From the NCBI GenBank assembly GCA_964426185.1, contig CAYRPF010000068.1, positions 1-18,405 on the forward strand: a DNA stretch of 18,405 bases, written 5' to 3'. A model generated the notes under the pieces. The model ran no database searches. It was not told the origin of the DNA and saw nothing but the letters and a program-made list of their open reading frames with translations. How positions within the stretch are numbered: the first letter of the stretch is position 1; every line of letters begins with the position of its first letter. The translations under genes and the position numbers were made by a program. This document shows positions 1 through 18,405 of this stretch, one piece after another. Origin of the DNA: an uncultured archaeon. GTDB lineage: Archaea; Asgardarchaeota; Lokiarchaeia; Sigyniarchaeales; Promethearchaeaceae.

Positions 1-163
1 TGAAAACAGAATGTGATTTTTAGCAAAACCAAGTGGAAATTTGGAACAGAAGTTATAATTCTATGATAAATTAATAAAAAGAAATTTTAGTTGGAACTAA
101 AAAAAATGAACTTTTCGAGAAATTCTCATAGAAGGCTTTTAAGATTTTGAAATAGAATAATTT

Positions 164-1630: not shown

Positions 1631-1695
1631 AGATAAATGCGGTTATAATGAAGAAAAAAGATGAAGATGAAATAGAAGTAGAAAAAAAACTCGAT

Positions 1696-2271: not shown

Positions 2272-2281
2272 GTTTACTCAC

Positions 2282-4168
2282 CTAAATTTTCCCAATTACG
2301 AAATTCAAGCCTCTGGCTTTAAGTGTTTCAGGGGTGGGAATTCCTTTTTCATCCCAGCCGCGGGCGAGATAATATTGCCTTATACCTTCACGGAATCCGG
2401 CTTCATCGTTGTACCAACCTTTGGTGGGTCCATCAAAATTGGGTTCATGGAAGTTGCGCCACGGAAGGGTGTCCTCACTGGCTGGTTCTATCCCTTCGAA
2501 TTGACATTCCCGGATATTAAAACATTTGGCAAGGTCGTGAATGCGATGCCCGGCCATTTCGATCTCATCTCCCGTCATGGGAATTCCGGTTACCATTTCA
2601 TAAACTTCTGCAATTTCCGGTAATCCTCGATGATAAATACCACGGGTAAATTTGCAAACCACCAGTGAATCAATAACTGCCATAAAAGCATCCTGACCAG
2701 CTAAAGCTATACCCCGTTTATCGAGTTCATCATATTTCTTGCGGTCAAACTTCTTTTTCATATCATAACCGTATGAGCCGTTTCGAAGATGGCAAGCACC
2801 GCGCAGAGAGACAGCAAATCCAATTGAAGCAGTGGATAATCCTTTCAATTCATAACCAGGAATACCTAATCCTTTAATTTCACATGAGAATTTCCATGCA
2901 TCTCCGCCTAATTTTTTAGCTGCATCGCGTGATCCATCAGCTAATAAATCACCGGCTGGGGTTGCGCGCAAGCACATATCCTCAATCATTTGGACTGCTG
3001 CTTTATAATCGCCCCATTGAAGCCCATTTTTATAGACAGAGTTGTTTCCCAGCATTTCTTTGGTGATATATCCCTTTTCATAGGCTTCCATAGCAAAACC
3101 CAAGGTAGTTCCACCTGACATGGTGTCTATGCCCATCCGGTCGCATATTTCCACCATTTTTATCAAGGCAGGGAAATGATCGATAAGACACACCGATCCT
3201 AAGGCGTAAATACTCTCATAATCTACACTTGAGACAATATTGGGATAATCAGGATCGTCGGGTTTGGTAGCACAGAGATGATCGCAAGCAATAGGGCACT
3301 GGCTACAACCTGTTTTCTTAACCACCCATTTTTCATCCATAGTTTCACCGGAAATTGCATCCGCTTTATCCCAATAGCCGGTTTGGAAATTCTTTACGGG
3401 TAAAACCCCTAAATCATTAAATTTCATTACGTTAATCGGCGTGCCCAAATCACGATACTTTAGGGTATCTTTTCCATTGGAGAGTTGGATTAATTCTTTG
3501 GCTTTTACCATAAATTCATCCGGTTTGGCAATCTTGATGGGTTTGGTTCCTCGAAATGCCATAGCTTTCACATTTTTAGAGCCCATTACCGCACCCAGAC
3601 CAGTTCGACCAGCTTGTCGAGCACGGTCGTTTGTAATACACGCCAATTTTGCCAATTTTTCTCCTGCTTGGCCGATACCCATTACAGAAATACGGTGATC
3701 GCCAAACATGTTCCGAATTTCTTCTTCTACAGTCCAAATATCCCTTCCCCATAAAGTATCTTTGCAAGGTATTATGTTTATCGCATCATCATCAAAGAAG
3801 ATGAAAACCGGCTCCGGTGCCTTACCGGTCAAAATGATCATATCGATCCCGGCTCGGCGCATTTGGGCTCCACATGAACCGGAACTGATGGCAAAACCGA
3901 TTCGATTTGTAAGTGGTGATTTTGCCCCTACACAGTATTTTGAAGAGGTTGGCACGATAGTTCCAGGAAAAGGTCCAATTGCCATTACAAAAGGATTGCG
4001 CGGATCAAAAGGATTGACACCTTTTGGGCATTCATCCCATAAAATTTTAGTTACGAATCCATATCCTCCGATGTAGTTCTTGCAGAATTCCTTATCTAAG
4101 GTTTCCTTCTTAGTCTCACCGGTCGTTAGATTGATTCGCACACACGTTTGAGTATAAGCTTCTACCAT
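2282..4168 (-). CDS. aor: Tungsten-containing aldehyde:ferredoxin oxidoreductase (AOR/WOR family), catalytic subunit
   Basis: Family motifs AKSPLT, GRTGLGAVMGSKNVKA, CSQCPIAC, DYESIYALG, DRMGIDTMS, RGACHL and YYLARGWDEKGIPTPETL. SD GGGTGA upstream. Confidence 0.93.
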   Translation of the reverse strand: MVEAYTQTCVRINLTTGETKKETLDKEFCKNYIGGYGFVTKILWDECPKGVNPFDPRNPFVMAIGPFPGTIVPTSSKYCVGAKSPLTNRIGFAISSGSCGAQMRRAGIDMIILTGKAPEPVFIFFDDDAINIIPCKDTLWGRDIWTVEEEIRNMFGDHRISVMGIGQAGEKLAKLACITNDRARQAGRTGLGAVMGSKNVKAMAFRGTKPIKIAKPDEFMVKAKELIQLSNGKDTLKYRDLGTPINVMKFNDLGVLPVKNFQTGYWDKADAISGETMDEKWVVKKTGCSQCPIACDHLCATKPDDPDYPNIVSSVDYESIYALGSVCLIDHFPALIKMVEICDRMGIDTMSGGTTLGFAMEAYEKGYITKEMLGNNSVYKNGLQWGDYKAAVQMIEDMCLRATPAGDLLADGSRDAAKKLGGDAWKFSCEIKGLGIPGYELKGLSTASIGFAVSLRGACHLRNGSYGYDMKKKFDRKKYDELDKRGIALAGQDAFMAVIDSLVVCKFTRGIYHRGLPEIAEVYEMVTGIPMTGDEIEMAGHRIHDLAKCFNIRECQFEGIEPASEDTLPWRNFHEPNFDGPTKGWYNDEAGFREGIRQYYLARGWDEKGIPTPETLKARGLNFVIGKI

Positions 4169-4290
4169 TGTATTTCACCCAGTTTATGTTGGTTGTAACA
4201 ATATCTCCTATTATTTGATTTTCAATTAACTTATTTTAAATTGGTTGATTTGAAGTGAATTTAAATCTTTTACTAAGATTAAAGTAAAGA

Positions 4291-5370
4291 TTAAAATCTG
4301 TTATTCATGCCGAAAAATATTCTTTCACCATTATAGTGGTCAATTAGTGCCAAAATCATGTCTTTCACATTTTTTTTCAGCACAGGTCCAAAATCTTCAG
4401 GCTTTAAGTATGATTGAGCCTTTAAACGCTCGCGAGCTTCGGCTTCAACTTTATCACTCAAAATCCATGCGGGCATGTTTTTCTTCACCCATTCTCGAAG
4501 ATGTTCAGTGTTTAATTTTTTAATTTGTTCAGGGACCAGTTCCCGTAATTTTTCCAAAAGATTTTGGATATAATCCATACTGAAAGGTTCTTCCCCGCTC
4601 AAAGCCTTAAATATATCTTCTAAATAGGCTTCCCGGTTAAATGTGTCTAAAGACGAAATAATGGTCTTCAAGCTAACTTCCAAGAATTCTTCTGGAATAA
4701 TTTGTTCCTTGTTTAATATGGCCATTGTTAAATAATAATTAAGTTGCATGACTTTTCGATTATCCCAGAATTCCTTACCGAGTGGATCCATATTTTTGAT
4801 TTTATCTACGATTTTATCTACCATAGAATTAACGGTTTTTTCATCGGGATTATCTAAATTCAAGGCAATAACATTATGAAGTTGACCTACTTGAGATTTT
4901 ATAGTTGGTGGATTTTTTTCCAATATTTCCATCAATGTTTTTATGTTCTGATCATTCAACTCGAGAATTAGAAGGTTATTATGGGGATAGAAACCAAGTT
5001 GAAGTAAAAACCGTTTAAATTCTGGATCTTCAGGAGAATCGATGGATATTTGGGCAATATCAGATAAACCGAAATATTCTAACAATCGGACAAATACATA
5101 AGCTAATATATTCCGATAAATATGCGATTTGTTCAATCCTGTAGGTCCAAAATGTAATTCATTCTCCCTGCGTTCGATGCCTACAAACATACCGATATGA
5201 ATATCATTTGCATAAATATCAATGATTTCAGTGGTAGTTTTACGTGGGCGTTTGGTTATTTTCAGCGTTTCCTTATCGCCGAAATTTATTTCAATAGGAA
5301 AGTATTCCCGAGTATGGAAAAATTTCGACGTCAACGCGTTAGGTTCTGCAGTTATTTTTCGACACCTCAA
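4291..5370 (-). CDS. Hypothetical protein: possible degenerate GNAT-like N-terminal domain plus helical C-terminal region; start codon uncertain
   Basis: 359-aa ORF with a TTG start. The segment ELHFGPTGLNKSHIYRNILAYVFVRLLEYF...ISIDSPEDPEFKRFLLQLGF has the GNAT motif A/B layout but lacks the R/Q-x-x-G-x-G glycines. Confidence 0.55.
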   Translation of the reverse strand: MRCRKITAEPNALTSKFFHTREYFPIEINFGDKETLKITKRPRKTTTEIIDIYANDIHIGMFVGIERRENELHFGPTGLNKSHIYRNILAYVFVRLLEYFGLSDIAQISIDSPEDPEFKRFLLQLGFYPHNNLLILELNDQNIKTLMEILEKNPPTIKSQVGQLHNVIALNLDNPDEKTVNSMVDKIVDKIKNMDPLGKEFWDNRKVMQLNYYLTMAILNKEQIIPEEFLEVSLKTIISSLDTFNREAYLEDIFKALSGEEPFSMDYIQNLLEKLRELVPEQIKKLNTEHLREWVKKNMPAWILSDKVEAEARERLKAQSYLKPEDFGPVLKKNVKDMILALIDHYNGERIFFGMNNRF

Positions 5371-5631
5371 ATCCGTTTCGTGAGTGAAGAATAGATATCA
5401 CTCATTCAATTATATCTAGTAAAATATGTAATACTATTAGAATTTTTATTTGTGCTTTTTATAAAGAGCTTGCACACTTTTTTTGGGAAGAATAATGAAA
5501 AAGGCAAAAAAAAAGGGAAATTTTCTTTATAATCCCCACTGAACAATTTGAATATAAGAATCTTGGTAATCTGAATGAATTTTTAGATATACCAAAAAAA
5601 AAAGGATAATTCTCGCTTCAATTTCTGGATT

Positions 5632-6096
5632 TTACTTTTTTTTTTTTATGGGATTTGGCCCTATCTTTTTTAATATATCCACGTACTCTTTTACAATCTC
5701 GGTAAGTTCGGCACCCTCACTGGCGGAAATATGCCTTAACCACACCCGATTGGGATTAAAACCGTATTGCTCGATTAATTTCACTAAAACCGGCATTCGG
5801 CGTACTGTTTTATGATTGCCATTTACATAATGACAATCTCCTATATGACAAGCTCCAATCAACACGCCGTCTGCTCCGAGTTTTAGGGCTTCTATTACCA
5901 TTTCCGGTTCCACTCGACCGCTGCACATCACCCGCATGACTCGCAGGTTGGGTGGCCTTTGCATCCGCGAAGTTCCAGCTTGATCACAACCAGTATAAGT
6001 GCACCAGTTACAAAAGATGCCTAAAATGAAGGGTTCGTAATCTTGATTTTTTTCCGAATGTGCATTTTCTGCTCCGTTTACAATAGTTTCTACCAT
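5632..6096 (-). CDS. mvhD: MvhD [2Fe-2S] subunit (hydrogenase/Hdr linker), 154 aa
   Basis: Motifs FCNWCTY, RVMCSGRV, GADGVLIGACHIGDCHY and ISASEG. I moved the start from the ORF-track 6213 to the ATG at 6096, which follows SD AGGAGG and lies 2 nt after the hdrA stop (TAATAATG). Confidence 0.93.
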   Translation of the reverse strand: MVETIVNGAENAHSEKNQDYEPFILGIFCNWCTYTGCDQAGTSRMQRPPNLRVMRVMCSGRVEPEMVIEALKLGADGVLIGACHIGDCHYVNGNHKTVRRMPVLVKLIEQYGFNPNRVWLRHISASEGAELTEIVKEYVDILKKIGPNPIKKKK

Positions 6097-6098
6097 TA

Positions 6099-8108
6099 TT
6101 ATTTGCCTCCTAAAACACCTTGAATTATGGCCATAAGCTGCTTGGTGGTAAAATGATTCTGCATGATAGCCTCCGAGGGACAAGTAGAAACGCAAGTACC
6201 GCAGCCTTTGCACTTAATTGGATTAATGTTGGCAATATTCAGCACTTGGTCAAACGTAATGGCACCAAATGGGCATTGATTTATGCAAGATCGGCAGCCT
6301 GAACAGAGACCTGGTTGCACTATGGAGAAATATGGATCAACTTCAACTTCACCCTTTGCCATCAATATTGCAGCTCCCGCCGCTGCGCCTTTTGCTTGAG
6401 ACACTGCATCTGGGATATCCTTAGGACCTTGCGCGGTTCCAGCAATAAAAATACCATCGGTAAGGGAATCTACCGGCCGCAGCTTGGGATGAGCTTCCAT
6501 GAAGAATCCATCAGAAGATTTTTGAATGGCCAATAAAGAAGCAATTTGATCCGAGTCTTGGGTAATCTCCAAGCCAATGGAGAGAACTACCATATCCACA
6601 TTCAACTCAATTGGTTGACTTAAGAAAGTATCTTCAGCTCGAATAAGCAGGGATTTATCGGGATTTTCTTGGATTTCTGCCAAGCGACCCCGCATAAATT
6701 TAATTCCAAAATTATGCCCGGCTGATTCGTAAAATTCTTCATAACCTTTCCCGAAAGCGCGAATATCCATATAAAAAATATAACACTGAGCCTCGGGGTG
6801 TTTTTCTTTGTACTGCCGAGCTTGCTTTATGGCATACATGCAGCAAACTCGACTACAATAAGGATGATAGCCTTCGCGCGTATCCCTACTTCCTACACAT
6901 TGAACCCACACAATTGATTTTGGGGAAGTTCCATCTGAAGGCCGTACAGGATGCCCTAAATTCGGTCCGGTGCTGCTTAGATTCCGTTCCATTTCCAAAC
7001 CGGTAATCACGTTGTCAAAGCGACCATAACCATAATTTCCTAAGTTTGTCGGGTCAATAGGATCGTATCCCGTTGCCACAATGATGGTACCAACTTCAAT
7101 TGTATCGATTTCATCTTGATCATTAAAATTAATGGCTTGTGGTTCGCATACAGTAGTTTGTGCGCAGATACCGCACTTTATACAAGCATCCATATCTATG
7201 GTATACAATCCAGGAACGGCTTGCGGAAACGCAATGTAGATGGCTTTTCTGGGACTTAAGCCTAAATCGAACTTATTTCCAACCAAAACTGGACAATGAA
7301 GTGAGCATTCTCCACAACCTGTGCATTTGCCTTGGTCCACGTAGTGGGCTTTTCGGCGGATTTTCACTTCAAAATTTCCTACAAAGCCATCGACCGATTC
7401 CAGTTCAGAATAGGCCATTATAGTAATATTAGGATGACGGGATACGTCGACCATTTTTGGAGTGAGAATGCAAGAAGAACAGTCCATGGTGGGGAAAGTT
7501 TTATCCAACTGAGCCATGTGGCCACCGATAGTGGCATCTTTCTCAAGTAAATAGACTTGAAATCCTTGATCGGCCAAATCGAGAGCAGTATTTATCCCAG
7601 AAATTCCAGCGCCTATGATCAATGCCGATGGGCGTACCATTACTTTCTGAGGTTTAAGGGCTTTCAACTCACGGGCTTTAGAAACTTGCATGCGAATATG
7701 ATCTTGAGCAATTACTTGAGCACCAGCTGATTCATACATATTAACCCATGTGGCGTGCTCACGAATGTTTGCTTGCACGAAATAGAATGGATTCAGCCCA
7801 TTTTCTAATAGCACGCGACGGAAGGTAGTTTCATGCATTCTAGGACTGCAAGCGGCGACTACTACCCGGTTAACTAAGCCGTCACGAATATCCCGGCCAA
7901 TTTCCGCTTGACCATTATCCGAGCAGTAGAATTTATATTGACGCACTACGACCACGTTCGGTAGGGTTTTAGCATAGGCCACCACTTCATCTACATTGAT
8001 AACCCCAGCTATATTAACCCCACAATGGCAGACATAGACTCCGATGCGAATGTCTTTGGATTCGGGAAATGAAGCGGGAGATACATCGGTTGTTTGAGAT
8101 TTACTCAT
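6099..8108 (-). CDS. hdrA: Heterodisulfide reductase subunit A (electron-bifurcating flavoprotein), all-Cys form
   Basis: GVYVCHCGVNI, AACSPR, FAD motif IIGAGISG, DKTFPTMDCSSCIL, QCVGSRD, YCSRVCCMYAIK, and inserted plus C-terminal 2x[4Fe-4S] ferredoxin domains. Confidence 0.96.
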   Translation of the reverse strand: MSKSQTTDVSPASFPESKDIRIGVYVCHCGVNIAGVINVDEVVAYAKTLPNVVVVRQYKFYCSDNGQAEIGRDIRDGLVNRVVVAACSPRMHETTFRRVLLENGLNPFYFVQANIREHATWVNMYESAGAQVIAQDHIRMQVSKARELKALKPQKVMVRPSALIIGAGISGINTALDLADQGFQVYLLEKDATIGGHMAQLDKTFPTMDCSSCILTPKMVDVSRHPNITIMAYSELESVDGFVGNFEVKIRRKAHYVDQGKCTGCGECSLHCPVLVGNKFDLGLSPRKAIYIAFPQAVPGLYTIDMDACIKCGICAQTTVCEPQAINFNDQDEIDTIEVGTIIVATGYDPIDPTNLGNYGYGRFDNVITGLEMERNLSSTGPNLGHPVRPSDGTSPKSIVWVQCVGSRDTREGYHPYCSRVCCMYAIKQARQYKEKHPEAQCYIFYMDIRAFGKGYEEFYESAGHNFGIKFMRGRLAEIQENPDKSLLIRAEDTFLSQPIELNVDMVVLSIGLEITQDSDQIASLLAIQKSSDGFFMEAHPKLRPVDSLTDGIFIAGTAQGPKDIPDAVSQAKGAAAGAAILMAKGEVEVDPYFSIVQPGLCSGCRSCINQCPFGAITFDQVLNIANINPIKCKGCGTCVSTCPSEAIMQNHFTTKQLMAIIQGVLGGK

Positions 8109-8282
8109 ATTATTTTCAACTTTTTTGAATTTTATTATATTTTTCTGGATTATTGGACCAGATAGCTAAATTTACGAGTGGATTGAAAAATTTTGATTGA
8201 TTTATATGATTTTAATTTTATTTTTAAATTTGATTGAAATTTAATAATTTGATTTTTGGTTTGATTTAATAATTTTGATGCA

Positions 8283-9074
8283 TCATTCAGCAGATTTTTT
8301 ACGAGATCTACGGCTGGTCTTGCGTATTGAGGTTTTTTTTACCTTAGATTTCTTTTTAGAAGCGGTTTTACCCTTGTTTTTTTTTTCTGTTTGTTTAGCT
8401 AATTTTTCGGTTGGTTGCTTTTTGGTTGCTTTTTTTTCTGATTTTTCTACAGTTTTTTCTGCTTTTTTTTCCCCAGGCTTTTCCATTGATTTTTTTTCTG
8501 GATTTTCCTTTGATTTTTCCACTTCCTTCGGTTCCCAGCCTACCAACTTGTCAAATTCAGTGGAACGCATCAGCTCTTGAATATCATGTACCGCCTCTGG
8601 ATGACTATGCGTCGTTGGGGGTATATCGGGTAAACCATAGACGGCTCGTAAATTGCTCCAGTTATTGGGTTCTCCCCCTTTTTTCGTTCCCAAAGGAACT
8701 CCATGACCAGTATCTGCCAAAATATGGGTAACTGCTTTATGTGGGGGTTTCATGTAACCTCGTTGACTGGCTAGATTACGTAACATAATAATTATATCGG
8801 TCACTGGAATGTGGCGCGGACATCGTTCAAAGCAAGTATAACAGGTAGAGCATAACCAGATATCATCGGACGAGAGCACCTCTTCCAAACCCAGCACCGC
8901 TTTGCGGATAATCTGTCTGGTTCGAATAGCCGTTCTGCGACCCGATGGACAACCGCCAGTGCATGTTCCACATTGGAAACAAGCGCGAACGAAAGCGAGT
9001 GCTTCATCTTTTACGAGTTTTTCGGTGATGGTATCAGAAATGTGAAGAATTTGGCTTCTTTGAATTTTTTCCAT
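8283..9074 (-). CDS. hdrC: Heterodisulfide reductase subunit C with an 83-aa Lys-rich C-terminal tail
   Basis: CFQCGTCTGGCPSGRRT, IWLCSTCYTCFERCPR and TGHGVP...PPTTHS are methanogen-type HdrC motifs. Preferred start is the ATG at 9074 (GAGGG upstream); the ORF-track TTG at 9107 is the alternative. Confidence 0.92.
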   Translation of the reverse strand: MEKIQRSQILHISDTITEKLVKDEALAFVRACFQCGTCTGGCPSGRRTAIRTRQIIRKAVLGLEEVLSSDDIWLCSTCYTCFERCPRHIPVTDIIIMLRNLASQRGYMKPPHKAVTHILADTGHGVPLGTKKGGEPNNWSNLRAVYGLPDIPPTTHSHPEAVHDIQELMRSTEFDKLVGWEPKEVEKSKENPEKKSMEKPGEKKAEKTVEKSEKKATKKQPTEKLAKQTEKKNKGKTASKKKSKVKKTSIRKTSRRSRKKSAE

Positions 9075-9323
9075 ATATTGTCCCTCGATACTGCGTATTC
9101 CCGCCAATTTCGAGTAATATTAATAGAGCGGGTAGAATTTCATTCCATGATGTTAAACTTACATGTAATGAAAATCGAGATTCGATGGTGTAGTGTTGAA
9201 CGCCAGATATAAAAAGCTTAATTTATTCAACTTAGTGAAAAGATTGAGAAAGATCCAAAAATCTATCAAAATAGCTGATTTAAAATAAATTTGTTAAAAA
9301 AGTATCATAAGACGCACGTAAAT

Positions 9324-9368
9324 AGGAGGAATAATCATGGCAAGGAGGAATAATCATGGCATTATTCC
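9324..9368 (+). repeat. Perfect 19-bp tandem duplication (AGGAGGAATAATCATGGCA x2) with an overlapping 8-bp hairpin
   Basis: Copies at 9324-9342 and 9343-9361. GGAATAAT (9347-9354) pairs with ATTATTCC (9361-9368). Each copy is SD + 7 nt + ATG. Confidence 0.9.
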
Positions 9369-9426
9369 AAAAAGAGTGATAAAAATGCAACATGAAGATA
9401 ACCCACAATTTTGTCGCAATAAATAA
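9337..9426 (+). CDS. Candidate 29-aa small ORF / leader peptide (MARRNNHGIIPKRVIKMQHEDNPQFCRNK)
   Basis: AGGAGG SD 7 nt upstream of ATG 9337, stop TAA at 9424-9426. No homology recognised. Confidence 0.25.
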   Translation: MARRNNHGIIPKRVIKMQHEDNPQFCRNK

Positions 9427-9582
9427 ATTTTTTATAATTCACCCAAAATTATAGAATAGGATGAAAGAAATCTTAAATAGATCCCGTTTTGAACGGATAT
9501 TAACCTACGAAAATTAACCTTCGTTTTTCGTAAATATAGCTTAATAGCTACGTATAAATATAGCTACACCGAGCGAATTATT

Positions 9583-11469
9583 ATGGTAGAAGTCGAACAA
9601 GAAATCACACACCTTCGTCGAATTGCAGAATCATTTGATGATTATCTGAAATTGGGGGATCTTTATCTTAAACTCCATAAATTCTTGGAAGCGCGCTATT
9701 ATTATTCCCAACTGATCAAACGTAATCCTAATGATATTCGCGGGTTTCTGAAAATGGGGTTTTTATCCATCTTATTGGATAATTATCGGGAGGCAAATAA
9801 TTATTATTCCGACGCTTTAAAACTGGACAATCGCAATATACATGCACTGATGGGTTTAGCCAAAGTTCATCTTCACTGGAATGGGTTGGAAAAGGCATTC
9901 TTTAATTTAACAACCGCTAATAAACTCATTTCACAGAATCCTGAGATTTTATTTCTTTTGGGAGTGGTGCATTTCCGCCGACTTGAGATCTTTTATGCTG
10001 AAAAATACCTACGTGAGGCTATAACACTGCTTCAAGTCGGAAAAACCACACTTAAGAAAGAACAAAGTAGTAAATTGGAATTTTTACAGGATGCGGCTTC
10101 ATTTTACTTGGGAACTGTCGAAGCTCAGAAAGGTCTGTATCAGAACGCCCTAAATGAATATACAATGTTGGAAGATCATACTTTCTTTAATACTGAACAC
10201 GCAGAAAATTACCAAGCCTTGTGGAACAATATTGGAATCGCCCAATACCGCTTAGGAGAATATGCTTATGCTAAAATTGCTTTCCAAAATGTGCTGGATA
10301 AACTTGAACCTTCGCAAGTAAAACCCCAGATTTGGGTAAATTTAGCCATGATTCATTGGATGCAAGAAGATTACAATTCTGCTACCCAAGCCTTGGAAAA
10401 TGCCCACAGAATTGCACCCACACTTTGGCCGTGGATGAAGGAACTGAAAGCATACCAGTCCCAAGGCTCTGCATGGTTGAAAGAAAGATTAGGGAACATG
10501 CTCACCGAAAATCCCGATCCAGATGGTGTAAATATTGGATTATATTTGGGTTGCGTTATTCCCAACCGTTATCCTTTTATCGATGCTGCCACCCGGCATG
10601 TGCTGAATGCACTTCAGGTAGGAGTAATGGAAATGGAAGGGGCGGGATGTTGTCCAGCTCCTGGTGTCTTTCGCTCCTTCGATATCAACACATGGCTCAC
10701 CTTAGGCGCACGTAATATTACCATCGCCGAAGAGATGAATCGAAATCTCTGTATCATGTGCAATGGCTGTTACGGAACTTTAAACGACATCAATACCGAA
10801 TTGAAACACGATACTGGTAAGCGAGAATATGTTAATGAAAAATTGAGCAAAATCGGTAAAACATATCAAGGTTTGGTTGAAGCAGAGCATTTAGTCTGGA
10901 TTTTATATCATGATGTGGGAATGGAAAAAATTAAGAAAATGATTACCCATAAACTGGACTTAAAAGTTGCAATCCACTACGGTTGTCACATCTTGAAACC
11001 CACTCACAACAAACCTTGGAAGGATGATTTTGAAACTCCCACCTTCCTTGACGAAATGGTGGAACTCACCGGTTGCACCTCCGTGGATTATCGAGATAAA
11101 CTAATGTGCTGTGGTGCAGGAGGAGGATTACGCGGCTCTGAAAAAGAAGTATCATTGGATTTCACCCGGGATAAATTGGAAGCCATGCGTCAGGCGGGAG
11201 TGGATATCATTGTAGATTGCTGTCCTTTCTGTCATCTACAATTTGATCTCGGTCAAATGGAGATTAATAGCATTTTCAAAGACCAAATTTCCAGCCCATT
11301 CTCCATCCCGGTTATCTATATCTCACAGCTACTCGGACTTGCAATGGGCATTGACCCTTTCTCCCTGGGTATTTTACGTCAGCCGAAACGAAATGGCGTG
11401 CCACCTTTTACTCCAGTAGATCCCCTTTTCACGCGACTGCAGCGAGATTTAGATCTCACCACCATTTAA
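9583..11469 (+). CDS. hdrB: TPR-repeat / heterodisulfide reductase subunit B fusion protein
   Basis: aa ~18-281 contain about 7 TPR-like 34-aa repeats. aa ~316-end is HdrB with both CCG domains intact (LGCVIP, GCCPAPG, CNGCYG; HYGCH, MCCGAGGG, CPFCHLQFD). No stop between the domains. Confidence 0.92.
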   Translation: MVEVEQEITHLRRIAESFDDYLKLGDLYLKLHKFLEARYYYSQLIKRNPNDIRGFLKMGFLSILLDNYREANNYYSDALKLDNRNIHALMGLAKVHLHWNGLEKAFFNLTTANKLISQNPEILFLLGVVHFRRLEIFYAEKYLREAITLLQVGKTTLKKEQSSKLEFLQDAASFYLGTVEAQKGLYQNALNEYTMLEDHTFFNTEHAENYQALWNNIGIAQYRLGEYAYAKIAFQNVLDKLEPSQVKPQIWVNLAMIHWMQEDYNSATQALENAHRIAPTLWPWMKELKAYQSQGSAWLKERLGNMLTENPDPDGVNIGLYLGCVIPNRYPFIDAATRHVLNALQVGVMEMEGAGCCPAPGVFRSFDINTWLTLGARNITIAEEMNRNLCIMCNGCYGTLNDINTELKHDTGKREYVNEKLSKIGKTYQGLVEAEHLVWILYHDVGMEKIKKMITHKLDLKVAIHYGCHILKPTHNKPWKDDFETPTFLDEMVELTGCTSVDYRDKLMCCGAGGGLRGSEKEVSLDFTRDKLEAMRQAGVDIIVDCCPFCHLQFDLGQMEINSIFKDQISSPFSIPVIYISQLLGLAMGIDPFSLGILRQPKRNGVPPFTPVDPLFTRLQRDLDLTTI

Positions 11470-11661
11470 ATTTAATTCCATTTATACGACTGGTATCATG
11501 GCCATCACTATCATTGGGATATCACTACCGTTGGCACTGTTATTATCAATGATACCATTACCCTTTTTTAACCCCAAACGCTATTGTTAATTATCACGAT
11601 TGCTCTCCAATCGAAGTAATTAATTTATTAAATAACCAATTAACTTTCTGAGGATAAAATC

Positions 11662-12417
11662 ATGACTTTCCCTAAACGATCAAAAAAAATTGATGATACT
11701 GAAATTAAAATCACCCACAAATACCTTGTAAAACAATACGACTTGATTCTCGATCGTATGAAATGCACTGGTTGCGGACAATGCTCAATTGTCTGTCCGA
11801 AAAATGCTATTCTTTTTGGTCCAGCCTCGGCAGTATACGAATCGAAACCTAAAGATTTAAACGCCGCCGTGGTCGACACGGTAGATCCCGATCTCTGTGT
11901 CATGTGCGGGACATGTCAAATCTTTTGCCCTTTTGATGCCATTAATTTGTATGAAGACGGCGAACTGGTAAAAACGGATTCTTTGGATTTGATCAAGCAC
12001 CATTCGGTTCCGAAATTGGAATCACGCGCAGTTCCTTGCTCCCGCTTAGGGCGTGATGGTAAAATTTACTGGGAGGGCAAAATTGAGGTTACCTATGAAA
12101 TGCCCATCGATAAAGAGGAATTCACGAAATATTATATGAATAAATGCCCGGGCGATTGCCACAAGTGCGAGCAAATATGTCCCACGGAGGCAATTACCTT
12201 TAAAGAATTGGAGGTTGCATGGGAATCGAAGAGTTTTATCGAAATCGATGATGAAAAATGTATTAAGTGTTCTGCTTGCATGAATGTTTGCCCTCAAGAT
12301 AATTTCAAGGTGTGGTGGACGGAGATCAACACAAGCGGGCCTTACAACCAGATATTTTGGGATCCGATTAAAAAGAAGCTGCTAAAGCAGGAAGTAGTAT
12401 TCACGAAAGAAGAATGA
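11662..12417 (+). CDS. Polyferredoxin (4 [4Fe-4S] motifs), resembling the N-terminal part of FwdF/FmdF
   Basis: CTGCGQCSIVCP, CVMCGTCQIFCPFDAI, variant CPGDCHKCEQICP, and CIKCSACMNVCP. SD-like GAGGA upstream. The FwdF likeness is recalled from family sequences, not searched. Confidence 0.8.
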   Translation: MTFPKRSKKIDDTEIKITHKYLVKQYDLILDRMKCTGCGQCSIVCPKNAILFGPASAVYESKPKDLNAAVVDTVDPDLCVMCGTCQIFCPFDAINLYEDGELVKTDSLDLIKHHSVPKLESRAVPCSRLGRDGKIYWEGKIEVTYEMPIDKEEFTKYYMNKCPGDCHKCEQICPTEAITFKELEVAWESKSFIEIDDEKCIKCSACMNVCPQDNFKVWWTEINTSGPYNQIFWDPIKKKLLKQEVVFTKEE

Positions 12418-12438
12418 TGAGGATGAATTATTTTTTTT

Positions 12439-12624
12439 CTAGTTGAGTTTTTTCTTATCAATTTTTTCCAGTTGATACTCCAAGGTTTTTTTGATTTTCA
12501 TTAGCCAATCAATTCTGTGGTTAATTATAGAAAGTCTTCTTTGAATTAACTCCCGTTCTTCAATAGATTTAGAGATTTCGCTAAAACGAGCAATATCATC
12601 AGAAGTATTCGAAAATTCTTGCAT
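12439..12624 (-). CDS. Small coiled-coil hypothetical protein (61 aa)
   Basis: Fills the gap convergent with the polyferredoxin. ATG start and heptad-like LIQRRLSIINHRIDWLMKIKKTLEYQLEKI. Confidence 0.55.
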   Translation of the reverse strand: MQEFSNTSDDIARFSEISKSIEERELIQRRLSIINHRIDWLMKIKKTLEYQLEKIDKKKLN

Positions 12625-12835
12625 TTAATCCACTTTTTAATTTTTCAAGATACTAATTAGTAGTATTATTTTATTTTTTGTGGGTCCTATAAAATTGTTT
12701 CTATACGTAATATAAATCTTGCTTTAAACAATCCAAAATGTTTATTAGAGAGAATAGAGTTTAATTTTCTGTAAGTAATTACCGAAATATATCGGAATTT
12801 TCTTCTACGGAAAGATTTGAAAAAGGAGCATATAG

Positions 12836-13660
12836 ATGACGGAATCGATCTCTTCCCGAATTTCATTAACGAAAGAATTCTCACTCCCTCCTATTGGATT
12901 AGGAACATATTCCTTAAAGGGAGAACGTTTAAAATCAGCTTTAGACTATGCACTGGAAATTGGATACAGATTAATAGACTCTGGTTCTTATTATGGAAAT
13001 GAAGAAGATATAGGAAAAGTAATTAGAGAATCAGAAATAAATCGTGAAGAAATTCTGCTCACTACAAAAGTCTGGAATACTGAGCAAGGATACGAATCGA
13101 CCTTAAAAGCTTTTGAGCGAAGTCGCAAAAAACTGCAGGTAGATTATATCGATCTTTATTTAATTCACTGGCCAGTCCCGATTTTACGGGAAGAAACTTG
13201 GAGGGCTTTAGAACATCTATATGATGAAGGTTTGTGCCGTGCAATTGGTGTAAGTAATTACTATTTCCCACATTTACAAGAGATTATTGATAACGGCCGT
13301 ATAGTTCCCATGGTAAACCAGATAGAACTTCACCCATTTTTAAATTTATCTGAACTTCTGGAATTTTGCCGAAAAAATAATATAATGGTTGAAGCATATT
13401 CACCGTTAACTAATGGATACATGCTCCGAGATGATAAATTATTGGAAATTGCGAAAAAATATCAGAGAACTCCTGCCCAAATGATGATACGTTGGAGTAT
13501 CCAAACAGGAGTAATTCCAATTCCAAAATCACAGCGTTTAGAGCGCATTGCTGAAAATGCAGAAGTTTTTGATTTCGTGATCAGCGCTAAAGATATGGAA
13601 ATGATGAATTCTTGGCATGAAAATCTCCATACTGATTGGGATCCTTCCGATGTACGCTAG
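12836..13660 (+). CDS. Aldo/keto reductase (AKR5 / glyoxal reductase / 2,5-DKG reductase-like)
   Basis: IGLGTY, catalytic tetrad in IDSGSYYGNE (D,Y), TTK (K) and LIHWP (H), plus AIGVSN, NQIELHP, AYSPL and IPKS. SD AAGGAG. Confidence 0.93.
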   Translation: MTESISSRISLTKEFSLPPIGLGTYSLKGERLKSALDYALEIGYRLIDSGSYYGNEEDIGKVIRESEINREEILLTTKVWNTEQGYESTLKAFERSRKKLQVDYIDLYLIHWPVPILREETWRALEHLYDEGLCRAIGVSNYYFPHLQEIIDNGRIVPMVNQIELHPFLNLSELLEFCRKNNIMVEAYSPLTNGYMLRDDKLLEIAKKYQRTPAQMMIRWSIQTGVIPIPKSQRLERIAENAEVFDFVISAKDMEMMNSWHENLHTDWDPSDVR

Positions 13661-13769
13661 ATAATGAAATATGGAAAAAATTAGTTATATAAACTATAAA
13701 TAAACGATTCAAACGAACTTCTACTTTCTTTTTTCTCTTCTGTTCCATTCTGTTCTTTTCTACTATTTT

Positions 13770-14633
13770 CTATACTTTTTCTTTAACTTCCGAGGTTTGG
13801 GTTTGGTTGTTTTCGATTTTTCTCTCACCTTTTCCTTTCAGTTGGTTTGAAAATCTGAGGAATAGATATCCACCTCCGATTAGAAACATCCAATAAACTA
13901 TCATTTCAATTAACGAAGGATTTCCGTTATAACCGAATAAACCTTTCAATATGCCTCCAAACACCCCATTTTCATCAAAAATTGGATTAATATCATAAAT
14001 ATGATCTATTATTATGGGTATAACTCCGGCTTCCTGGAATTCATGGATTCCATAAGCAATTAATCCTGCGGCTACGAAAATCAAGAAAATAGTGGTAAAT
14101 GCAAAGAATTTCTTGAGGTCAATTCTTATTGCACCAATATAAAGTAATACGCCTAATATAAGTGCAAATATTATTCCTAAAACAGCACCAATCAGAGAGT
14201 TTTCCGCAGAAAGTAAGGATGTTGAACCCAAGAAAATAACAGTTTCAATTCCTTCCCTTAACACAGAAACAAACACTAATGCGAAAATTCTCCACCGGGG
14301 AACCCTCTGAATGCTGGAATCTATCTTTTCTTCTAACCTTCGAATATAGTTAGACTGTTTCATCATCCATAAAATTAGGGTGATGATTAAAATCGCCCCT
14401 ATTGTCATAGTTATTCCTTCAAATATTTTTTCAGCCTGCCCTGTAAACCCACCCATTAATTGGGTGAATAAAAGGGCTCCGAATAGACTTACTAAAATAC
14501 CCGTTAGCACACCAAACCATGCGAATTTTCTTAAATTCGATTTGCCGATGCGGGAGAGATATCCCAAAACAACACCTACTATCAAAGCGGCTTCCAACGT
14601 TTCTCTAAATGTTATTATCAAACTTGTGATCAT
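13770..14633 (-). CDS. FTR1/EfeU-family iron permease
   Basis: Two RExxE motifs (RETLEA, REGIET), multiple hydrophobic helices, GIHEFQEAG and GLFGYNGNPS. Confidence 0.92.
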   Translation of the reverse strand: MITSLIITFRETLEAALIVGVVLGYLSRIGKSNLRKFAWFGVLTGILVSLFGALLFTQLMGGFTGQAEKIFEGITMTIGAILIITLILWMMKQSNYIRRLEEKIDSSIQRVPRWRIFALVFVSVLREGIETVIFLGSTSLLSAENSLIGAVLGIIFALILGVLLYIGAIRIDLKKFFAFTTIFLIFVAAGLIAYGIHEFQEAGVIPIIIDHIYDINPIFDENGVFGGILKGLFGYNGNPSLIEMIVYWMFLIGGGYLFLRFSNQLKGKGERKIENNQTQTSEVKEKV

Positions 14634-14694
14634 AGGGATTCACTTCTTCTAATAATTAAAAGAGGAAATTAAAAATATAAAGGAATTTAGAATA

Positions 14695-14710
14695 ATTAGA
14701 CATGACTAAT
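14695..14710. promoter_or_regulatory. Candidate DtxR/IdeR/MntR-family metal operator (TTAG-N6-CTAA) upstream of the FTR1 gene
   Basis: ATTAGACATGACTAAT near-palindrome 62-77 nt upstream of the FTR1 start, just downstream of a minus-strand TATA-like TTTATA (14722-14717). Confidence 0.45.
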
Positions 14711-14912
14711 ATTAAATATAAACAAAAAACTTAAATCACTTATTTACCACTTATCTCACTTAAATTAAGATATCACACAGATCGAAATGCTGAATAAATT
14801 TCCGCCAATTTTTCAAAAAGATAAAAAATTGTGGATTTCACTAAAAAATCATTAAAAAAATAAAAAAGATTGAAATTGAAAAAATAAATGGAAAATTATT
14901 AAATTAAAACTC

Positions 14913-17237
14913 TTACTCAGCATTCTCTGTATTCTCTGAATTCTCTGTATTATCATTACTGTCATTATTTTCGGAATTATTTTCGATTATTTCTGCGTCC
15001 TCAACCTTAGAGTTTTCGCTACTGCTCATTTCTTCAGCCTTTCTTGGGATATCGGTGATTTTTTTACCGGTGACCATCAGCTCGAGAATTTGGTTGAGGC
15101 GCGGAACCATATTAGCCGGTTCAGGAAGATCGCCTTCCGCCAGCAAGCAGTTTTCGAACATCTGTTCGATAACTGGGTCGATCATTTCATTATCGGGATT
15201 CTCTTGATATAAGTTAACCAATTTGGAAACCATTTCATGATCTGGATTGAATTCGAAGATTTTTCGGGGAATCTGGAATGATTTATCTAAACTGGTTTGA
15301 GTCCAATACCTCATCGCACGTTGCATGCTGGAAGTCATACCTGTGGATGGATTTGCCAATCGACATGCATTTTTATACAACCTATCTGAAACTCGTGCAT
15401 CGATGATTTTATCCCCTAACAAGGCTTTTACATGATCTAAAAACACTTTCATTTCAGGAGAACCCGCATCACTTTCTTCGTCATCAGATGTTTTTTCTGA
15501 TTCATCATCTTTTGCTTCTCCTTTCTTCTTATCTTCAGTAACATCTATGGGTTTGAAGGGATATGTTTTTTCTTTAACTTTTTTATCTTCTTCACCTTCT
15601 TTTGCCTCATCTTTCTTTTCTGATTCTTCAGTTTCTCCACTTTCTTCACCTTCAAGTTCTACTGTGTAATCGTGGACATTCATCATCAAGAAATTATCAA
15701 TGGGTTGATCAAAGAAAATAACTTCATAGTCTTTCTGTTCATAATAACCTAAATGAGGAGATAATCGCATGCTATCAAGATTTTCACCAATTAAATAATA
15801 GATTTCATCTTGACCTTCTTGCATTCGATCTACATATTCTTTTAAGCTGATATATTCATCTTCTCCTGTTTTATTTGTGCGGAATCGCAAAAGTTCTAGA
15901 AGTTTTTCTTTACGTGCAAAATCGGTAACTATTCCTTCTTTAACAAAGGGACCAAATTCTTTCCAGAAAGTTTTATATTTTTCGGGATCATCTTGGGCGA
16001 GTTCCATCATCTCTTTAAAGAAGCGTTTAACAATAAGACCTTCAATTTTCATGATTAATCGGTCGGTCTGAATAGTTTCTCGGCTGATATTCAAAGGTAT
16101 ATCATCGGATTCTACAATTCCATAGACAAACCGCATCCATTGAGGCACGATTTCCTTAGATTTTTCCATAATCATTACATTTTTAGAATAAAGTGCTAAA
16201 CCGTATTCTACCTCGGGACGGAGTAAGTCTTGCGATTTTGATTCTGGTATAAATAGGATTGCCCGGAATTGAACTCTACCGTCAACTTTATAGTTAATTA
16301 CTTTAAGGTAATTATCATACCGTTTCGAGATATAGTGATAAAAGTTTAAGTAATCATCATCGGTGATTTCTGATTTACCACGTTTCCAGATAGGATTGAT
16401 CTGATTTACAGGAGTTCGTTCCGGTTCTTTTTCTTCTTCAGTAGCACTCTCTGATGCACTTTCTGAACCACTTTCTGATGCACTTTCCGGGGAACTTTCC
16501 GAATCTGCTGAATCAGCTGAATCCACTTCAGTTTTAGATTCTTCTTCTAAATCCACTTCAACTTTTTCTTCCGGTTTCTTAATCTCAGAAACATATATTG
16601 GAAATGGGACAAAATTCGAATATTTTTTAATTATACTCTCAATCCGATAGCTTTGAAGATATTCTGAGTTGTCTTCGTTTAGATATAAAATGACATCAGT
16701 TCCGCGATGAGATTTTTCAGCTGGATCAATTTCAAATTTACCACTACCGTCTGAAACCCACATATAGGCAGGTTCTCCCTTTTTGTAGGATTTAGAAAGA
16801 ACTTCTACCTTCTTAGCCACCATAAATACTGAATAAAATCCAATTCCGAATTGCCCAATGATATCTAAATCAATTTCTTTTTTCTCTTGAGATTCTTGTT
16901 TGGACTGTTCAAGTTGTTCTAAAAACTTTTGCGAGCCACTTCCTGCAATAGTTCCTAAATTTTGAATCATTTCATCTTTAGTCATCCCAATTCCAGTATC
17001 ACGGACTATCAGTTTATTTGCTTCTTGATCTAAAATTATTTCAATTTCTTGAGGCAAGTCGGGATCTTCAATATCTTTTTCAGATAATCCTATAAAATGC
17101 ATCTTTTTTAACGCATCAGAAGAATTACTGACTAATTCTCGCAAAAAGATCTCTTTGTGTTGATACAATGATTTACTCAAAATATCCAGAAGTTTCTTAA
17201 TTTCAGCTTTGAATTCATGTGTTTGTGCTTCAGTCAT
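14913..17237 (-). CDS. htpG: Hsp90-family chaperone (HtpG) with extended acidic linker, second acidic insert and acidic C-terminal tail
   Basis: FLRELVSNSSDA, DTGIGMT, NLGTIAGSG, IGQFGIGFYS, IPLNISRE (catalytic Arg), YVDRM and EFNPDH. SD GGTGAT. Confidence 0.95.
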   Translation of the reverse strand: MTEAQTHEFKAEIKKLLDILSKSLYQHKEIFLRELVSNSSDALKKMHFIGLSEKDIEDPDLPQEIEIILDQEANKLIVRDTGIGMTKDEMIQNLGTIAGSGSQKFLEQLEQSKQESQEKKEIDLDIIGQFGIGFYSVFMVAKKVEVLSKSYKKGEPAYMWVSDGSGKFEIDPAEKSHRGTDVILYLNEDNSEYLQSYRIESIIKKYSNFVPFPIYVSEIKKPEEKVEVDLEEESKTEVDSADSADSESSPESASESGSESASESATEEEKEPERTPVNQINPIWKRGKSEITDDDYLNFYHYISKRYDNYLKVINYKVDGRVQFRAILFIPESKSQDLLRPEVEYGLALYSKNVMIMEKSKEIVPQWMRFVYGIVESDDIPLNISRETIQTDRLIMKIEGLIVKRFFKEMMELAQDDPEKYKTFWKEFGPFVKEGIVTDFARKEKLLELLRFRTNKTGEDEYISLKEYVDRMQEGQDEIYYLIGENLDSMRLSPHLGYYEQKDYEVIFFDQPIDNFLMMNVHDYTVELEGEESGETEESEKKDEAKEGEEDKKVKEKTYPFKPIDVTEDKKKGEAKDDESEKTSDDEESDAGSPEMKVFLDHVKALLGDKIIDARVSDRLYKNACRLANPSTGMTSSMQRAMRYWTQTSLDKSFQIPRKIFEFNPDHEMVSKLVNLYQENPDNEMIDPVIEQMFENCLLAEGDLPEPANMVPRLNQILELMVTGKKITDIPRKAEEMSSSENSKVEDAEIIENNSENNDSNDNTENSENTENAE
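14922..14948 (-). repeat. 9-bp coding tandem repeat x3 in the HtpG tail (TEN/SEN/TEN)
   Basis: ATTCTCTGT ATTCTCTGA ATTCTCTGT on the plus strand. Confidence 0.8.
16444..16503 (-). repeat. 12-bp coding tandem repeat x5 in the HtpG charged linker (SESA/SESG units)
   Basis: GCACTCTCTGAT GCACTTTCTGAA CCACTTTCTGAT GCACTTTCCGGG GAACTTTCCGAA on the plus strand. Confidence 0.8.
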
Positions 17238-17536
17238 TATTAATCACCATTTGGTTTGTAAATTGTATACGTCGTCATCAATCATTAAGGAAGATTAAAA
17301 AACGTGTCTTATATAATATAATGAAAGATCATATTAAAACTTCTACCGAAGTCTTCAAAATCAAATTTCAAAGAAACTTATGGAATATAATGATTTTTTT
17401 TCAAATCTTTAGAAGAATATAATCTGTCAATTCTAATACTGCCTTGAAATTCACGAATAATTAAATATATTTGTAGGGTTAATCTAAATCGAGAAATTTT
17501 ATAAAAAGGCAAGTCATAATAAATTATAAGAATATA

Positions 17537-18292
17537 ATGCCAGATCTAAGAAAAAATCAGATTTTTTTGGGAAATGCCTTGGAAATTTTACCCATTATTC
17601 CAGATAAGTCAATTGATTTGATGATTACAGATCCTCCCTTTTATATTATGACAAAAAAAAACATCAAGTTCAAACATCGCACCGATATAGTTCAAACCGC
17701 TCATTTTGATCAATTTGATAGCTACGATAATTTTTTACAATTTACAGAATCTTGGCTTAAAATTATTGTTAAAAAAATGAAAGATGATGCTTCAGCATAT
17801 ATTTTTTTTGGTGCTCAATATATTACTGATTTAATTAGAATTTGTGAAAAATTAAATATGCGTTATAAGGGAATTATAGTATGGCATAAAACGAATCCTG
17901 CTCCTAAAATACGAAAATCAGGATATCTTTCTTCAACTGAACTAATATTGTTTATGGTGAAAGGTAAACCAGTTTTTAATTTTCTAGGTCAAAAAAAAAT
18001 GCATAATTTAATCGAAACCCCTATTTGTCAGCGTCCAGAACGACTGGTAAATCCAAAACCAAATTCAAAGCGAAAATACAAAACTTTACATCCAACACAA
18101 AAACCAGAATCTTTAATAGAACATTTAATCCTGGTCTCTTCAAACCCGAACCAATTAGTTTGCGATCCTTTCGCAGGAACTGGAACAATAAACAAAGTGT
18201 GTCAAAAATTGAATCGATATTGCATAGGGATTGAAATTAATCCAGATTATTATCAAGCAGCTATCGAACGACTTAATCATTTAAATAAATAA
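17537..18292 (+). CDS. Orphan beta-class N6-adenine/N4-cytosine DNA methyltransferase
   Basis: Motif IV TDPPF near the N-terminus, HPTQKP, and motif I DPFAGTG near the C-terminus. No restriction enzyme gene is adjacent. Confidence 0.9.
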   Translation: MPDLRKNQIFLGNALEILPIIPDKSIDLMITDPPFYIMTKKNIKFKHRTDIVQTAHFDQFDSYDNFLQFTESWLKIIVKKMKDDASAYIFFGAQYITDLIRICEKLNMRYKGIIVWHKTNPAPKIRKSGYLSSTELILFMVKGKPVFNFLGQKKMHNLIETPICQRPERLVNPKPNSKRKYKTLHPTQKPESLIEHLILVSSNPNQLVCDPFAGTGTINKVCQKLNRYCIGIEINPDYYQAAIERLNHLNK

Positions 18293-18340
18293 CTTCACTT
18301 CTAAATTTAATTTATTCGATTATATTTTTGGTATTAATTA

Positions 18341-18384
18341 GGAAAAAAAGAAAGAAATGCCCGAAGGCGATTAGCCTTCGGTGC
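18341..18384 (-). terminator. GC-rich hairpin plus U-tract directly downstream of the 16S 3' end
   Basis: CCGAAGGC (18361-18368) and GCCTTCGG (18374-18381) form a perfect 8-bp stem with a 5-nt loop, followed on the minus strand by TTTCTTTCTTTTTTT. Confidence 0.65.
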
Positions 18385-18391
18385 GTGTTGT

Positions 18392-18405
18392 AGGAGGTGA
18401 TCCAG
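18392..18405 (-). rRNA. 3' terminus of 16S rRNA (partial, at the window edge)
   Basis: The minus strand reads CTGGATCACCTCCT, the conserved 16S 3' end including the anti-SD. Only 14 nt are visible. Confidence 0.7.

Follow-up and report, generated by a model that had tools for sequence, protein, structure and literature searches.

What is a long, presumably protein-docking arm doing on the subunit of heterodisulfide reductase (Hdr) that cleaves the disulfide? The question is raised by a gene, here called TPR-hdrB, that lies at positions 9583..11469 on the forward strand of an 18,405-nt stretch of DNA from a Lokiarchaeia archaeon (contig CAYRPF010000068.1, positions 1 to 18,405; assembly GCA_964426185.1). 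This stretch is the window that we analysed, and all coordinates refer to it unless another contig is named. The product of the gene joins an N-terminal arm of tetratricopeptide repeats (TPR) to the catalytic domain of HdrB. Hdr-type electron bifurcation is taken as central to the H2-producing, syntrophic metabolism of Lokiarchaeia, and since these archaea show no coenzyme M/coenzyme B system, the identity of the disulfide on which their HdrB acts is a key question. HdrB copies of the cultured strains carry a predicted protein-docking arm of 300 residues, and the arm is present in several kinds of Hdr module, linked to aldehyde:ferredoxin oxidoreductase (AOR), to NAD(P)H or to formate. As the fusion occurs in cultured Lokiarchaeia its role is experimentally approachable, with the arm as a ready-made bait for the acceptor or for a missing module.

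We find that TPR-HdrB is a real, conserved and family-specific variant of HdrB that is so far undescribed. A full-text search of the literature outside subscription journals (HdrB with TPR; Hdr in Lokiarchaeota) returned no mention of the fusion, and we found no paper describing a characterised TPR-HdrB, just as the initial annotation of the window had supposed. The paper on the isolation of Promethearchaeum syntrophicum MK-D1 treats the enzyme as MvhADG-HdrABC and leaves the arm uncommented (PMC7015854), and a 2025 preprint on Promethearchaeota isolates likewise speaks of MvhADG-HdrABC with no comment on the arm.

Architecture of TPR-HdrB

TPR-hdrB is a single uninterrupted open reading frame (ORF) of 628 amino acids plus stop. 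Judged from its sequence and fold matches, the C-terminal part is a complete, canonical HdrB. The NCBIfam equivalog model for HdrB (TIGR03288) scores 387.4 bits over aa 319-597 against a cut-off of 345.15, the CCG family (PF02754) matches twice with 113 bits, and phmmer places aa 318-592 on residues 3-272 of a methanogen HdrB of solved structure (8RVV_B; E 4e-96). Because the catalytic part begins at residue 3 of the solved protein, the first ~316 residues are all additional to a normal HdrB. The catalytic domain itself (aa 317-597; 10531..11373, forward strand), delimited by TIGR03288, phmmer and Foldseek, contains two copies of the CCG pattern C-X31-40-CC-X35-36-C-XX-C (C324 to C396 and C468 to C550), and these supply the ten cysteines for two non-cubane [4Fe-4S] clusters. 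All ten (C324, C356, C357, C393, C396, C468, C509, C510, C547 and C550) are invariant among 35 aligned fused homologues. The protein ends in a tail (aa 598-628; 11374..11466, forward strand) with the motif G-x-P-P-F...F. Alignments to methanogen HdrB stop short of this tail, and it is also present in unfused Lokiarchaeial HdrB, so its presence does not depend on the TPR arm.

We modelled the whole protein with AlphaFold2 on the basis of 35 homologues (pLDDT 91.8; predicted template modelling score, pTM, 0.89). The model consists of one N-terminal helix, 14 helices that form seven hairpins (aa 18-277), two capping helices (aa 285-294 and 296-304), a short linker and the HdrB fold. In Foldseek comparisons the C-terminal half matches the methanogen subunits 5ODC_B and 8RWN_B with template modelling (TM) scores of 0.93-0.94, root-mean-square deviations (rmsd) of 1.6-1.9 A and 48-51% identity (for 5ODC_B, TM 0.93 and rmsd 1.9 A), and the N-terminal half matches superhelices of the 8-repeat consensus TPR (CTPR8; E 2e-10) as well as the TPR domain of OGT. 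Pfam finds TPR_2 (69 bits, cut-off 27), TPR_1 (43.5 bits) and TPR_16 over aa ~21-280, the first two above their cut-offs. On these three lines of evidence (Pfam, the model and the fold matches) the arm is a true TPR superhelix, built of stacked 34-residue helix-turn-helix repeats. Its seven hairpins (9634..10413, forward strand), as defined by Pfam, the modelled helices and Foldseek, span aa 18-47, 52-81, 86-115, 120-153, 159-194, 207-240 and 248-277, the fifth being atypical with a long helix A. The reading of the initial annotation thus holds for the protein as a whole: it had described one ORF of this length with about seven TPR repeats and a full HdrB with all ten CCG cysteines, and the three repeat peptides that it quoted are present at aa 21-49, 213-238 and 250-279.

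The joint between arm and catalytic domain is made up of a W-P-W motif (aa 282-284) and the two capping helices (together 10426..10494, forward strand), followed in the alignment by a linker (aa 305-316; 10495..10530, forward strand) that contains Met306. Among the 35 sequences P283 is kept in 94% and W282 in 80%. The arm attaches at the start of the first beta-strand of the catalytic domain, about eight residues ahead of the first cluster ligand, C324, and the pTM of the model suggests a fixed orientation of the arm relative to the catalytic domain. Beyond the structural positions, the conserved residues of the arm are E36, N216, N253 and the WPW motif, to which R38, Y40, H96, N209, R223 and W259 can be added within the window's own subclade. 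Both N216 and N253 fall on position 6 of the TPR, in repeats 6 and 7, which are those nearest the catalytic domain, and they are 94-100% conserved in the same 35 sequences.

One translated unit

A search of 5.8 billion clustered proteins retrieved 44 other full-length proteins with TPR and CCG domains (581-667 aa, 36-67% identity, 94-100% coverage). They come from Candidatus Harpocratesius (67%), Lokiarchaeum ossiferum (two copies), MK-D1 (two copies) and metagenome-assembled genomes of Lokiarchaeota or Promethearchaeota, and several of them lie on closed chromosomes, including those of MK-D1 and L. ossiferum. As the fusion is continuous in these homologues from independent assemblies and closed genomes, an assembly join, or the frameshift at the junction that the initial annotation had considered, is excluded.

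The alternative that the arm and HdrB are two genes, or that only an ordinary HdrB is made from Met306, has nothing in its favour apart from the in-frame ATG at 10498, which is indeed codon 306 as first annotated, and we regard it as hardly credible. The frame is unbroken throughout the homologues, and Met306 is kept as methionine in only the two closest sequences of the alignment. Compared with the nearest relative, the arm has a proportion of non-synonymous differences (pN) of 0.29 and of synonymous differences (pS) of 0.76, and the catalytic domain a pN of 0.087; synonymous sites are saturated, for which reason pN and pS are given in place of a true dN/dS. These values indicate that the arm is under purifying selection, yet evolving at about three times the rate of the catalytic domain. 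A TATA-like box, TATAAATATA (9553..9562, forward strand), read from the sequence, is centred ~26 nt 5' of the first ATG at 9583, and the MK-D1 and L. ossiferum orthologues have A/T-rich boxes at the same distance, with a common GAGTCGA-like spacer; upstream of the internal ATG no A/T-rich box was found. From this we infer a leaderless or very short-leader mRNA that would begin at the first codon of the arm. Nor did a word-based search of limited sensitivity find any short stand-alone relative of the arm.

Distribution and origin of the fusion

Though first annotated as a one-off, the gene belongs to a group of paralogues found across a family. We ran a profile of the arm alone over 161 genomes of the class, 14 from the window's family and 147 from six other families. 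Within the window's family, 12 of the 14 genomes gave full-length matches (278-368 bits) inside open frames of 589-657 aa, and the two negative genomes are fragmented and 76-85% complete. The profile gave no such match in the 147 genomes from outside this family, where generic TPR matches reach 119 bits at best; all six of the other families carry unfused HdrB. In a sample of 201 genomes of the phylum, full-length fused matches were again confined to the window's family, which includes the closed genomes of MK-D1 and L. ossiferum. The suggestion that the architecture might turn out to be already widespread and characterised is therefore right in its first half, inside one Lokiarchaeial family, and wrong in its second.

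Unfused proteins are found in a sister family, whose HdrBs are 317-345 aa long with catalytic domains 52-58% identical to that of the window. We built a maximum likelihood tree of the HdrB domain (quick IQ-TREE, LG+G4, 63 rows, arm columns excluded), rooted with three distant HdrB-like paralogues of the window's genome. All 35 fused proteins lie on one side of a branch with moderate support (SH-aLRT 90), in four subclades whose neighbours are unfused Lokiarchaeial HdrBs, and several genomes have two fused copies. The picture is consistent with a single event that fused the arm to a duplicated hdrB, with more duplication afterwards, as far as can be judged from these sequences. On the origin of the arm itself, a search with the arm-only profile against 1.84 billion representatives was uninformative, its list being dominated by giant multi-TPR proteins.

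Gene context

The genes that encode the usual partners of HdrB adjoin TPR-hdrB on the opposite strand. Divergent from it lies hdrC (8283..9074, reverse strand; TIGR03290, 189 bits against a cut-off of 160), which likely starts at the Met at codon 12 of the ORF 8283-9107. It is followed by hdrA (6099..8108, reverse strand; 669 aa), which scores 863 bits over 640 of the 777 positions of the NCBIfam model HdrA2 and matches Fer4 and FAD/NAD families in Pfam, and by an mvhD-like gene with an FlpD domain (5632..6213, reverse strand; PF02662, 153 bits). As the mvhD-like ORF overlaps the end of hdrA, translation probably begins at a later codon than the first of the ORF; in MK-D1 the orthologue has 148 aa. 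On the other side, directly 3' of TPR-hdrB, lies a gene for a polyferredoxin of 251 aa (11662..12417, forward strand; Pfam Fer4) with four CxxCxxCxxxCP motifs. Further along the reverse strand come a gene for a protein of 359 aa (P0065; 4291..5370), a tungsten-type AOR (2282-4168; AFOR_N and AFOR_C) and the iron-sulfur subunit of the AOR (1696-2271; Fer4_11). The order hdrC-hdrA-mvhD-P0065-AOR, with the gene for the iron-sulfur subunit of the AOR at its end and divergent from TPR-hdrB and the polyferredoxin gene, is the same in MK-D1 and L. ossiferum.

The Hdr module of the window (1696-9107 on the reverse strand and 9583-12417 on the forward strand) is thus clustered with AOR and its iron-sulfur subunit, not with a hydrogenase or formate dehydrogenase, and may encode an AOR-coupled bifurcating complex. 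An aldo/keto reductase gene (12836-13660, forward strand) lies 3' of the polyferredoxin gene; MK-D1 and L. ossiferum also have one close to the cluster, which makes the gene a candidate member of the AOR/aldehyde part of the module. Two peculiarities of the divergent region can be added. The HdrC of the window has a lysine-rich, low-complexity tail of ~75-80 aa (8283-8534, reverse strand) beyond its normal end (...FDKLVGW), which the MK-D1 HdrC (190 aa) lacks, and the spacer between hdrC and TPR-hdrB holds, at 9322-9360 on the forward strand, a tandem duplication of a AGGAGGAATAATCATGGCA-like unit consisting of a Shine-Dalgarno-like sequence and an ATG.

P0065 has no match in Pfam or NCBIfam, and its full-length orthologues occur solely in genera that have the AOR-linked TPR-hdrB cluster, all of them inside the fusion-bearing family; a central segment of ~110 aa recurs in sister-family proteins of ~400 aa. 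It has strongly conserved TKRPRK and HYNG...FFG.NNR motifs, and its structure model (pLDDT 68) gives weak GNAT-like matches in the N-terminal domain. As it has no conserved cysteine, we rejected it as a disulfide substrate.

The polyferredoxin gene is directly 3' of TPR-hdrB in three of the four subclades. Its strong orthologues (318-467 bits) are found in the fusion-bearing family only, adjoining the fusion wherever both share a contig; the sister family has full-length homologues that score lower (130-200 bits). At the one sister-family locus examined, the polyferredoxin lies inside an hdrC-hdrB-hdrA-mvhD-polyferredoxin operon with unfused hdrB, so it looks like a general Lokiarchaeial Hdr component, judging by gene order and homology, and not one specific to the arm.

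Elsewhere the surroundings of TPR-hdrB differ. One of the other subclades has it at the end of an operon of hdrC, an mvhG-like gene, hdrA-mvhD, an iron-sulfur protein gene and an FAD/NAD gene. Another TPR-hdrB adjoins FdhA-NuoEF-type genes, together with polyferredoxin and hdrC. Two further loci, each followed by a polyferredoxin of ~250 aa, are divergent from hdrC-hdrA in one case and on a contig without hdrA or hdrC in the other. In one subclade TPR-hdrB stands by itself; at the two loci examined, an mvhG-hdrC-hdrB(unfused)-mvhA operon lies at a distance of 0.3 kb and 4 kb. The genome of the window also has a second, canonical operon, hdrC-hdrB-hdrA-mvhD-ferredoxin with unfused hdrB, on contig C38. 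This operon (C38, 2768-14080) stands beside a gene for a Ras-family small GTPase and genes for two MalT-like TPR proteins (686 and 723 aa), and the tail of its hdrB contains a few masked bases.

At the far end of the window a homologue of Hsp90/HtpG is encoded (14913-17237, reverse strand; 774 aa), with a C-terminal tail that is acidic and rich in Asn and Glu. The distribution of Hsp90 over the class is patchy: 32 of the 161 genomes have it, as do 7 of the 13 other genomes of the window's family.

What the arm may do

In the scheme that we propose, TPR-HdrB would be the disulfide-reducing terminal subunit, with two non-cubane [4Fe-4S] sites, of a soluble, flavin-based electron-bifurcating complex of the HdrA/HdrC/MvhD type, and its N-terminus would have been extended once by the seven-repeat TPR superhelix, in the ancestor of one Lokiarchaeial family. 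The chemistry would be expected to be unchanged, with electrons passing from HdrA to HdrC and on to the HdrB clusters, where the disulfide is cleaved. Since the catalytic domain is very close to methanogen HdrB, disulfide cleavage at the two non-cubane clusters, fed from HdrA via HdrC, is the safe reading of the sequence. The arm, which the conserved WPW cap links to the first strand of the catalytic domain, would act as a docking platform that keeps a protein or peptide beside the enzyme, the ligand being either a macromolecular substrate (a thiol/disulfide or persulfide) or a lineage-specific module of the complex. We consider it somewhat probable that the arm docks a protein or peptide in one of these two ways; recruitment of a protein partner would be the most natural reading of a seven-repeat TPR superhelix. 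Position-6 asparagines of the kind conserved here line the concave groove of OGT, where they contact substrate peptides.

Because the genome shows no coenzyme M/coenzyme B system, a macromolecular thiol or disulfide is a possible ligand. Neither ComA (PF02679) nor McrA (PF02249) nor DsrC (PF04358) was found in the 92%-complete genome of the window, so that CoM-S-S-CoB or DsrC is unlikely to be the acceptor. We propose only tentatively, and as rather doubtful, that the arm docks a protein-borne cysteine disulfide or persulfide, for instance on a carrier of the TusA/DsrE type, instead of a small heterodisulfide. Genes for TusA and DsrE are present in the genome, on other contigs and unlinked to the TPR-hdrB locus. 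A lead in the same direction comes from MK-D1, where an excerpt of a supplementary table lists two unfused hdr operons on either side of a TusA (SirA)-TusD-DsrE/F-TusB set (DSAG12_01134-01150), expressed as a whole at ~200-320 reads per kilobase per million (RPKM) and in the unfused hdr operons at ~250-320 RPKM (PMC7015854, Supplementary Table 3); this linkage points to protein-borne sulfur as a candidate substrate of Lokiarchaeial Hdr.

Several observations weigh against a docking role. We identified no partner for the arm; what holds of the initial proposal is the architecture, in one translated unit under purifying selection, and the recruitment of a protein by the arm is plausible. The conserved arm positions are mostly the structural signature of the TPR (Ala, Gly and Pro), and the arm evolves some threefold faster than the catalytic domain, so that no one ligand groove common to all stands out. 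The contexts of the paralogues differ (AOR, an NAD(P)H-type module, FdhA/NuoEF, or alone), so that a common genomic partner is not visible. The sister family has unfused HdrB in operons that also encode HdrC, HdrA, MvhD and a homologous polyferredoxin, the first three of which accompany it in the second hdr operon of the window's genome too, and the arm should therefore not be needed for binding any of them. Complex prediction with three chains (arm, HdrB domain and polyferredoxin) gave a score of 0.08 (mark 0.32); this three-chain design differs from that of the calibration, and the outcome counts neither for nor against docking.

The main rival to docking is that the arm is purely architectural, stabilising or oligomerising the Hdr complex and binding known subunits only, with the substrate unaltered. 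It might, for instance, compensate for the uncoupling of hdrB from hdrC or bridge two complexes, by binding HdrC, HdrA, MvhD, the polyferredoxin or another TPR-HdrB. This would fit the predominance of structural residues among the conserved positions, and the fusion coincides with the departure of hdrB from the ancestral order hdrC-hdrB-hdrA-mvhD-polyferredoxin and its pairing with the polyferredoxin gene; the high pTM also suggests a rigid packing of the arm on the catalytic domain. However, an HdrB without the arm has the same subunits encoded next to it, both in the sister family and in the window's own genome, and one fusion subclade is encoded alone, apart from hdrA and hdrC, and we judge an architectural role to be possible, if on the unlikely side. 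Less probable again is that the arm serves as a lid or as a regulatory element, gating the non-cubane clusters or sensing a ligand or the redox state. Its direct attachment to the first beta-strand, so near to C324, and the conservation of the junction (WPW and capping helices) would suit such a role, but a seven-repeat superhelix of 300 aa is large for it, and we know of no precedent for a lid among CCG proteins.

A last possibility is that the arm serves as a TPR co-chaperone module of eukaryotic type, with the acidic C-terminus of Hsp90 as its docking site. The Hsp90 gene lies 3.5 kb away, and the initial annotation had named the protein, as HtpG, among the candidate partners. The nearness of an Hsp90 gene with an acidic tail, which is kept within the genus, is what speaks for such a role. 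Against this, no Hsp90 was found in any of the four Promethearchaeum genomes, all of them fusion-bearing and one the closed genome of MK-D1, or in a second fusion-bearing genus, whereas three other, fusion-free families account for 24 genomes that do have it, and in L. ossiferum the Hsp90 gene is 5 Mb from the fusion. The tail ends in ...TENAE rather than EEVD, and the arm is a seven-repeat superhelix, not a three-repeat clamp domain. We rejected the pairing on the gene distributions and the tail sequence, and hold it to be very improbable.

Should the more doubtful reading hold, in which the arm docks a protein-borne disulfide or persulfide, TPR-HdrB would be a first case of an Hdr in which a protein-recognition domain determines the choice of acceptor. 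It would then also be clear what takes the place of the high-potential acceptor that electron bifurcation so far lacks in these cultured relatives of the ancestor of eukaryotes.

Comparison with known systems

The HdrB of methanogen HdrABC is known from several complexes (HdrABC-MvhAGD, 5ODC; Elp-Hdr, 8RVU, 8RVV and 8RWN; Fdh-Hdr-Fmd, 7BKB). TPR-HdrB shares with it the fold, both CCG motifs and the ten cysteines, and is likewise encoded with hdrC, hdrA and mvhD. It differs in its ~316 extra N-terminal residues and its Loki-type C-terminal tail, in a gene that is divergent from hdrC-hdrA and in a cluster with AOR where the methanogen systems have a hydrogenase or formate dehydrogenase. Unlike the methanogens, its host has no detected McrA or ComA, and its substrate is probably not CoM-S-S-CoB. 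The unfused Lokiarchaeial HdrBs, of the sister family and of contig C38, are nearer: the catalytic domain is 52-58% identical, the tail is the same and so are the partners encoded by hdrC, hdrA and mvhD, to which the sister family adds the polyferredoxin. They have no arm, and their hdrB lies between hdrC and hdrA.

Other systems that combine Hdr-like enzymes or TPR domains with protein partners match less well. Unlike the sulfur-oxidising sHdr loci (hdrC1B1A-hyp-hdrC2B2 with lbpA, dsrE and tusA), the window contains one copy each of hdrC, hdrA and hdrB and none of lbpA, tusA and dsrE. It has no Flx-type genes and the genome no detectable DsrC, which sets it apart from FlxABCD-HdrABC and the DsrC-reducing Hdr. 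The carboxylate-clamp co-chaperones of Hsp70/Hsp90 (Hop, CHIP and PP5) differ in the number of repeats, in the tail of the candidate chaperone (TENAE) and in the lack of co-occurrence with Hsp90.

A precedent for a protein substrate can nevertheless be drawn by analogy from CCG enzymes that act on protein-borne sulfur, namely DsrK with DsrC and the sulfur-oxidising sHdr with LbpA, TusA and DsrE. In these systems non-cubane chemistry of the HdrB/HdrD type is directed at a protein-bound cysteine or lipoyl group, as it may be in TPR-HdrB; they are not known to include a TPR domain. For the arm, the nearest likeness is found in OGT and SPINDLY, where a long N-terminal TPR superhelix also precedes a catalytic domain. 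The fold of the arm matches the TPR domain of OGT, and the repeats nearest the catalytic domain have the conserved position-6 Asn, though two such residues are conserved in TPR-HdrB and not a full ladder. With an unrelated catalytic domain and no sequence kinship beyond the TPR motif, the resemblance is one of analogy and not of membership.

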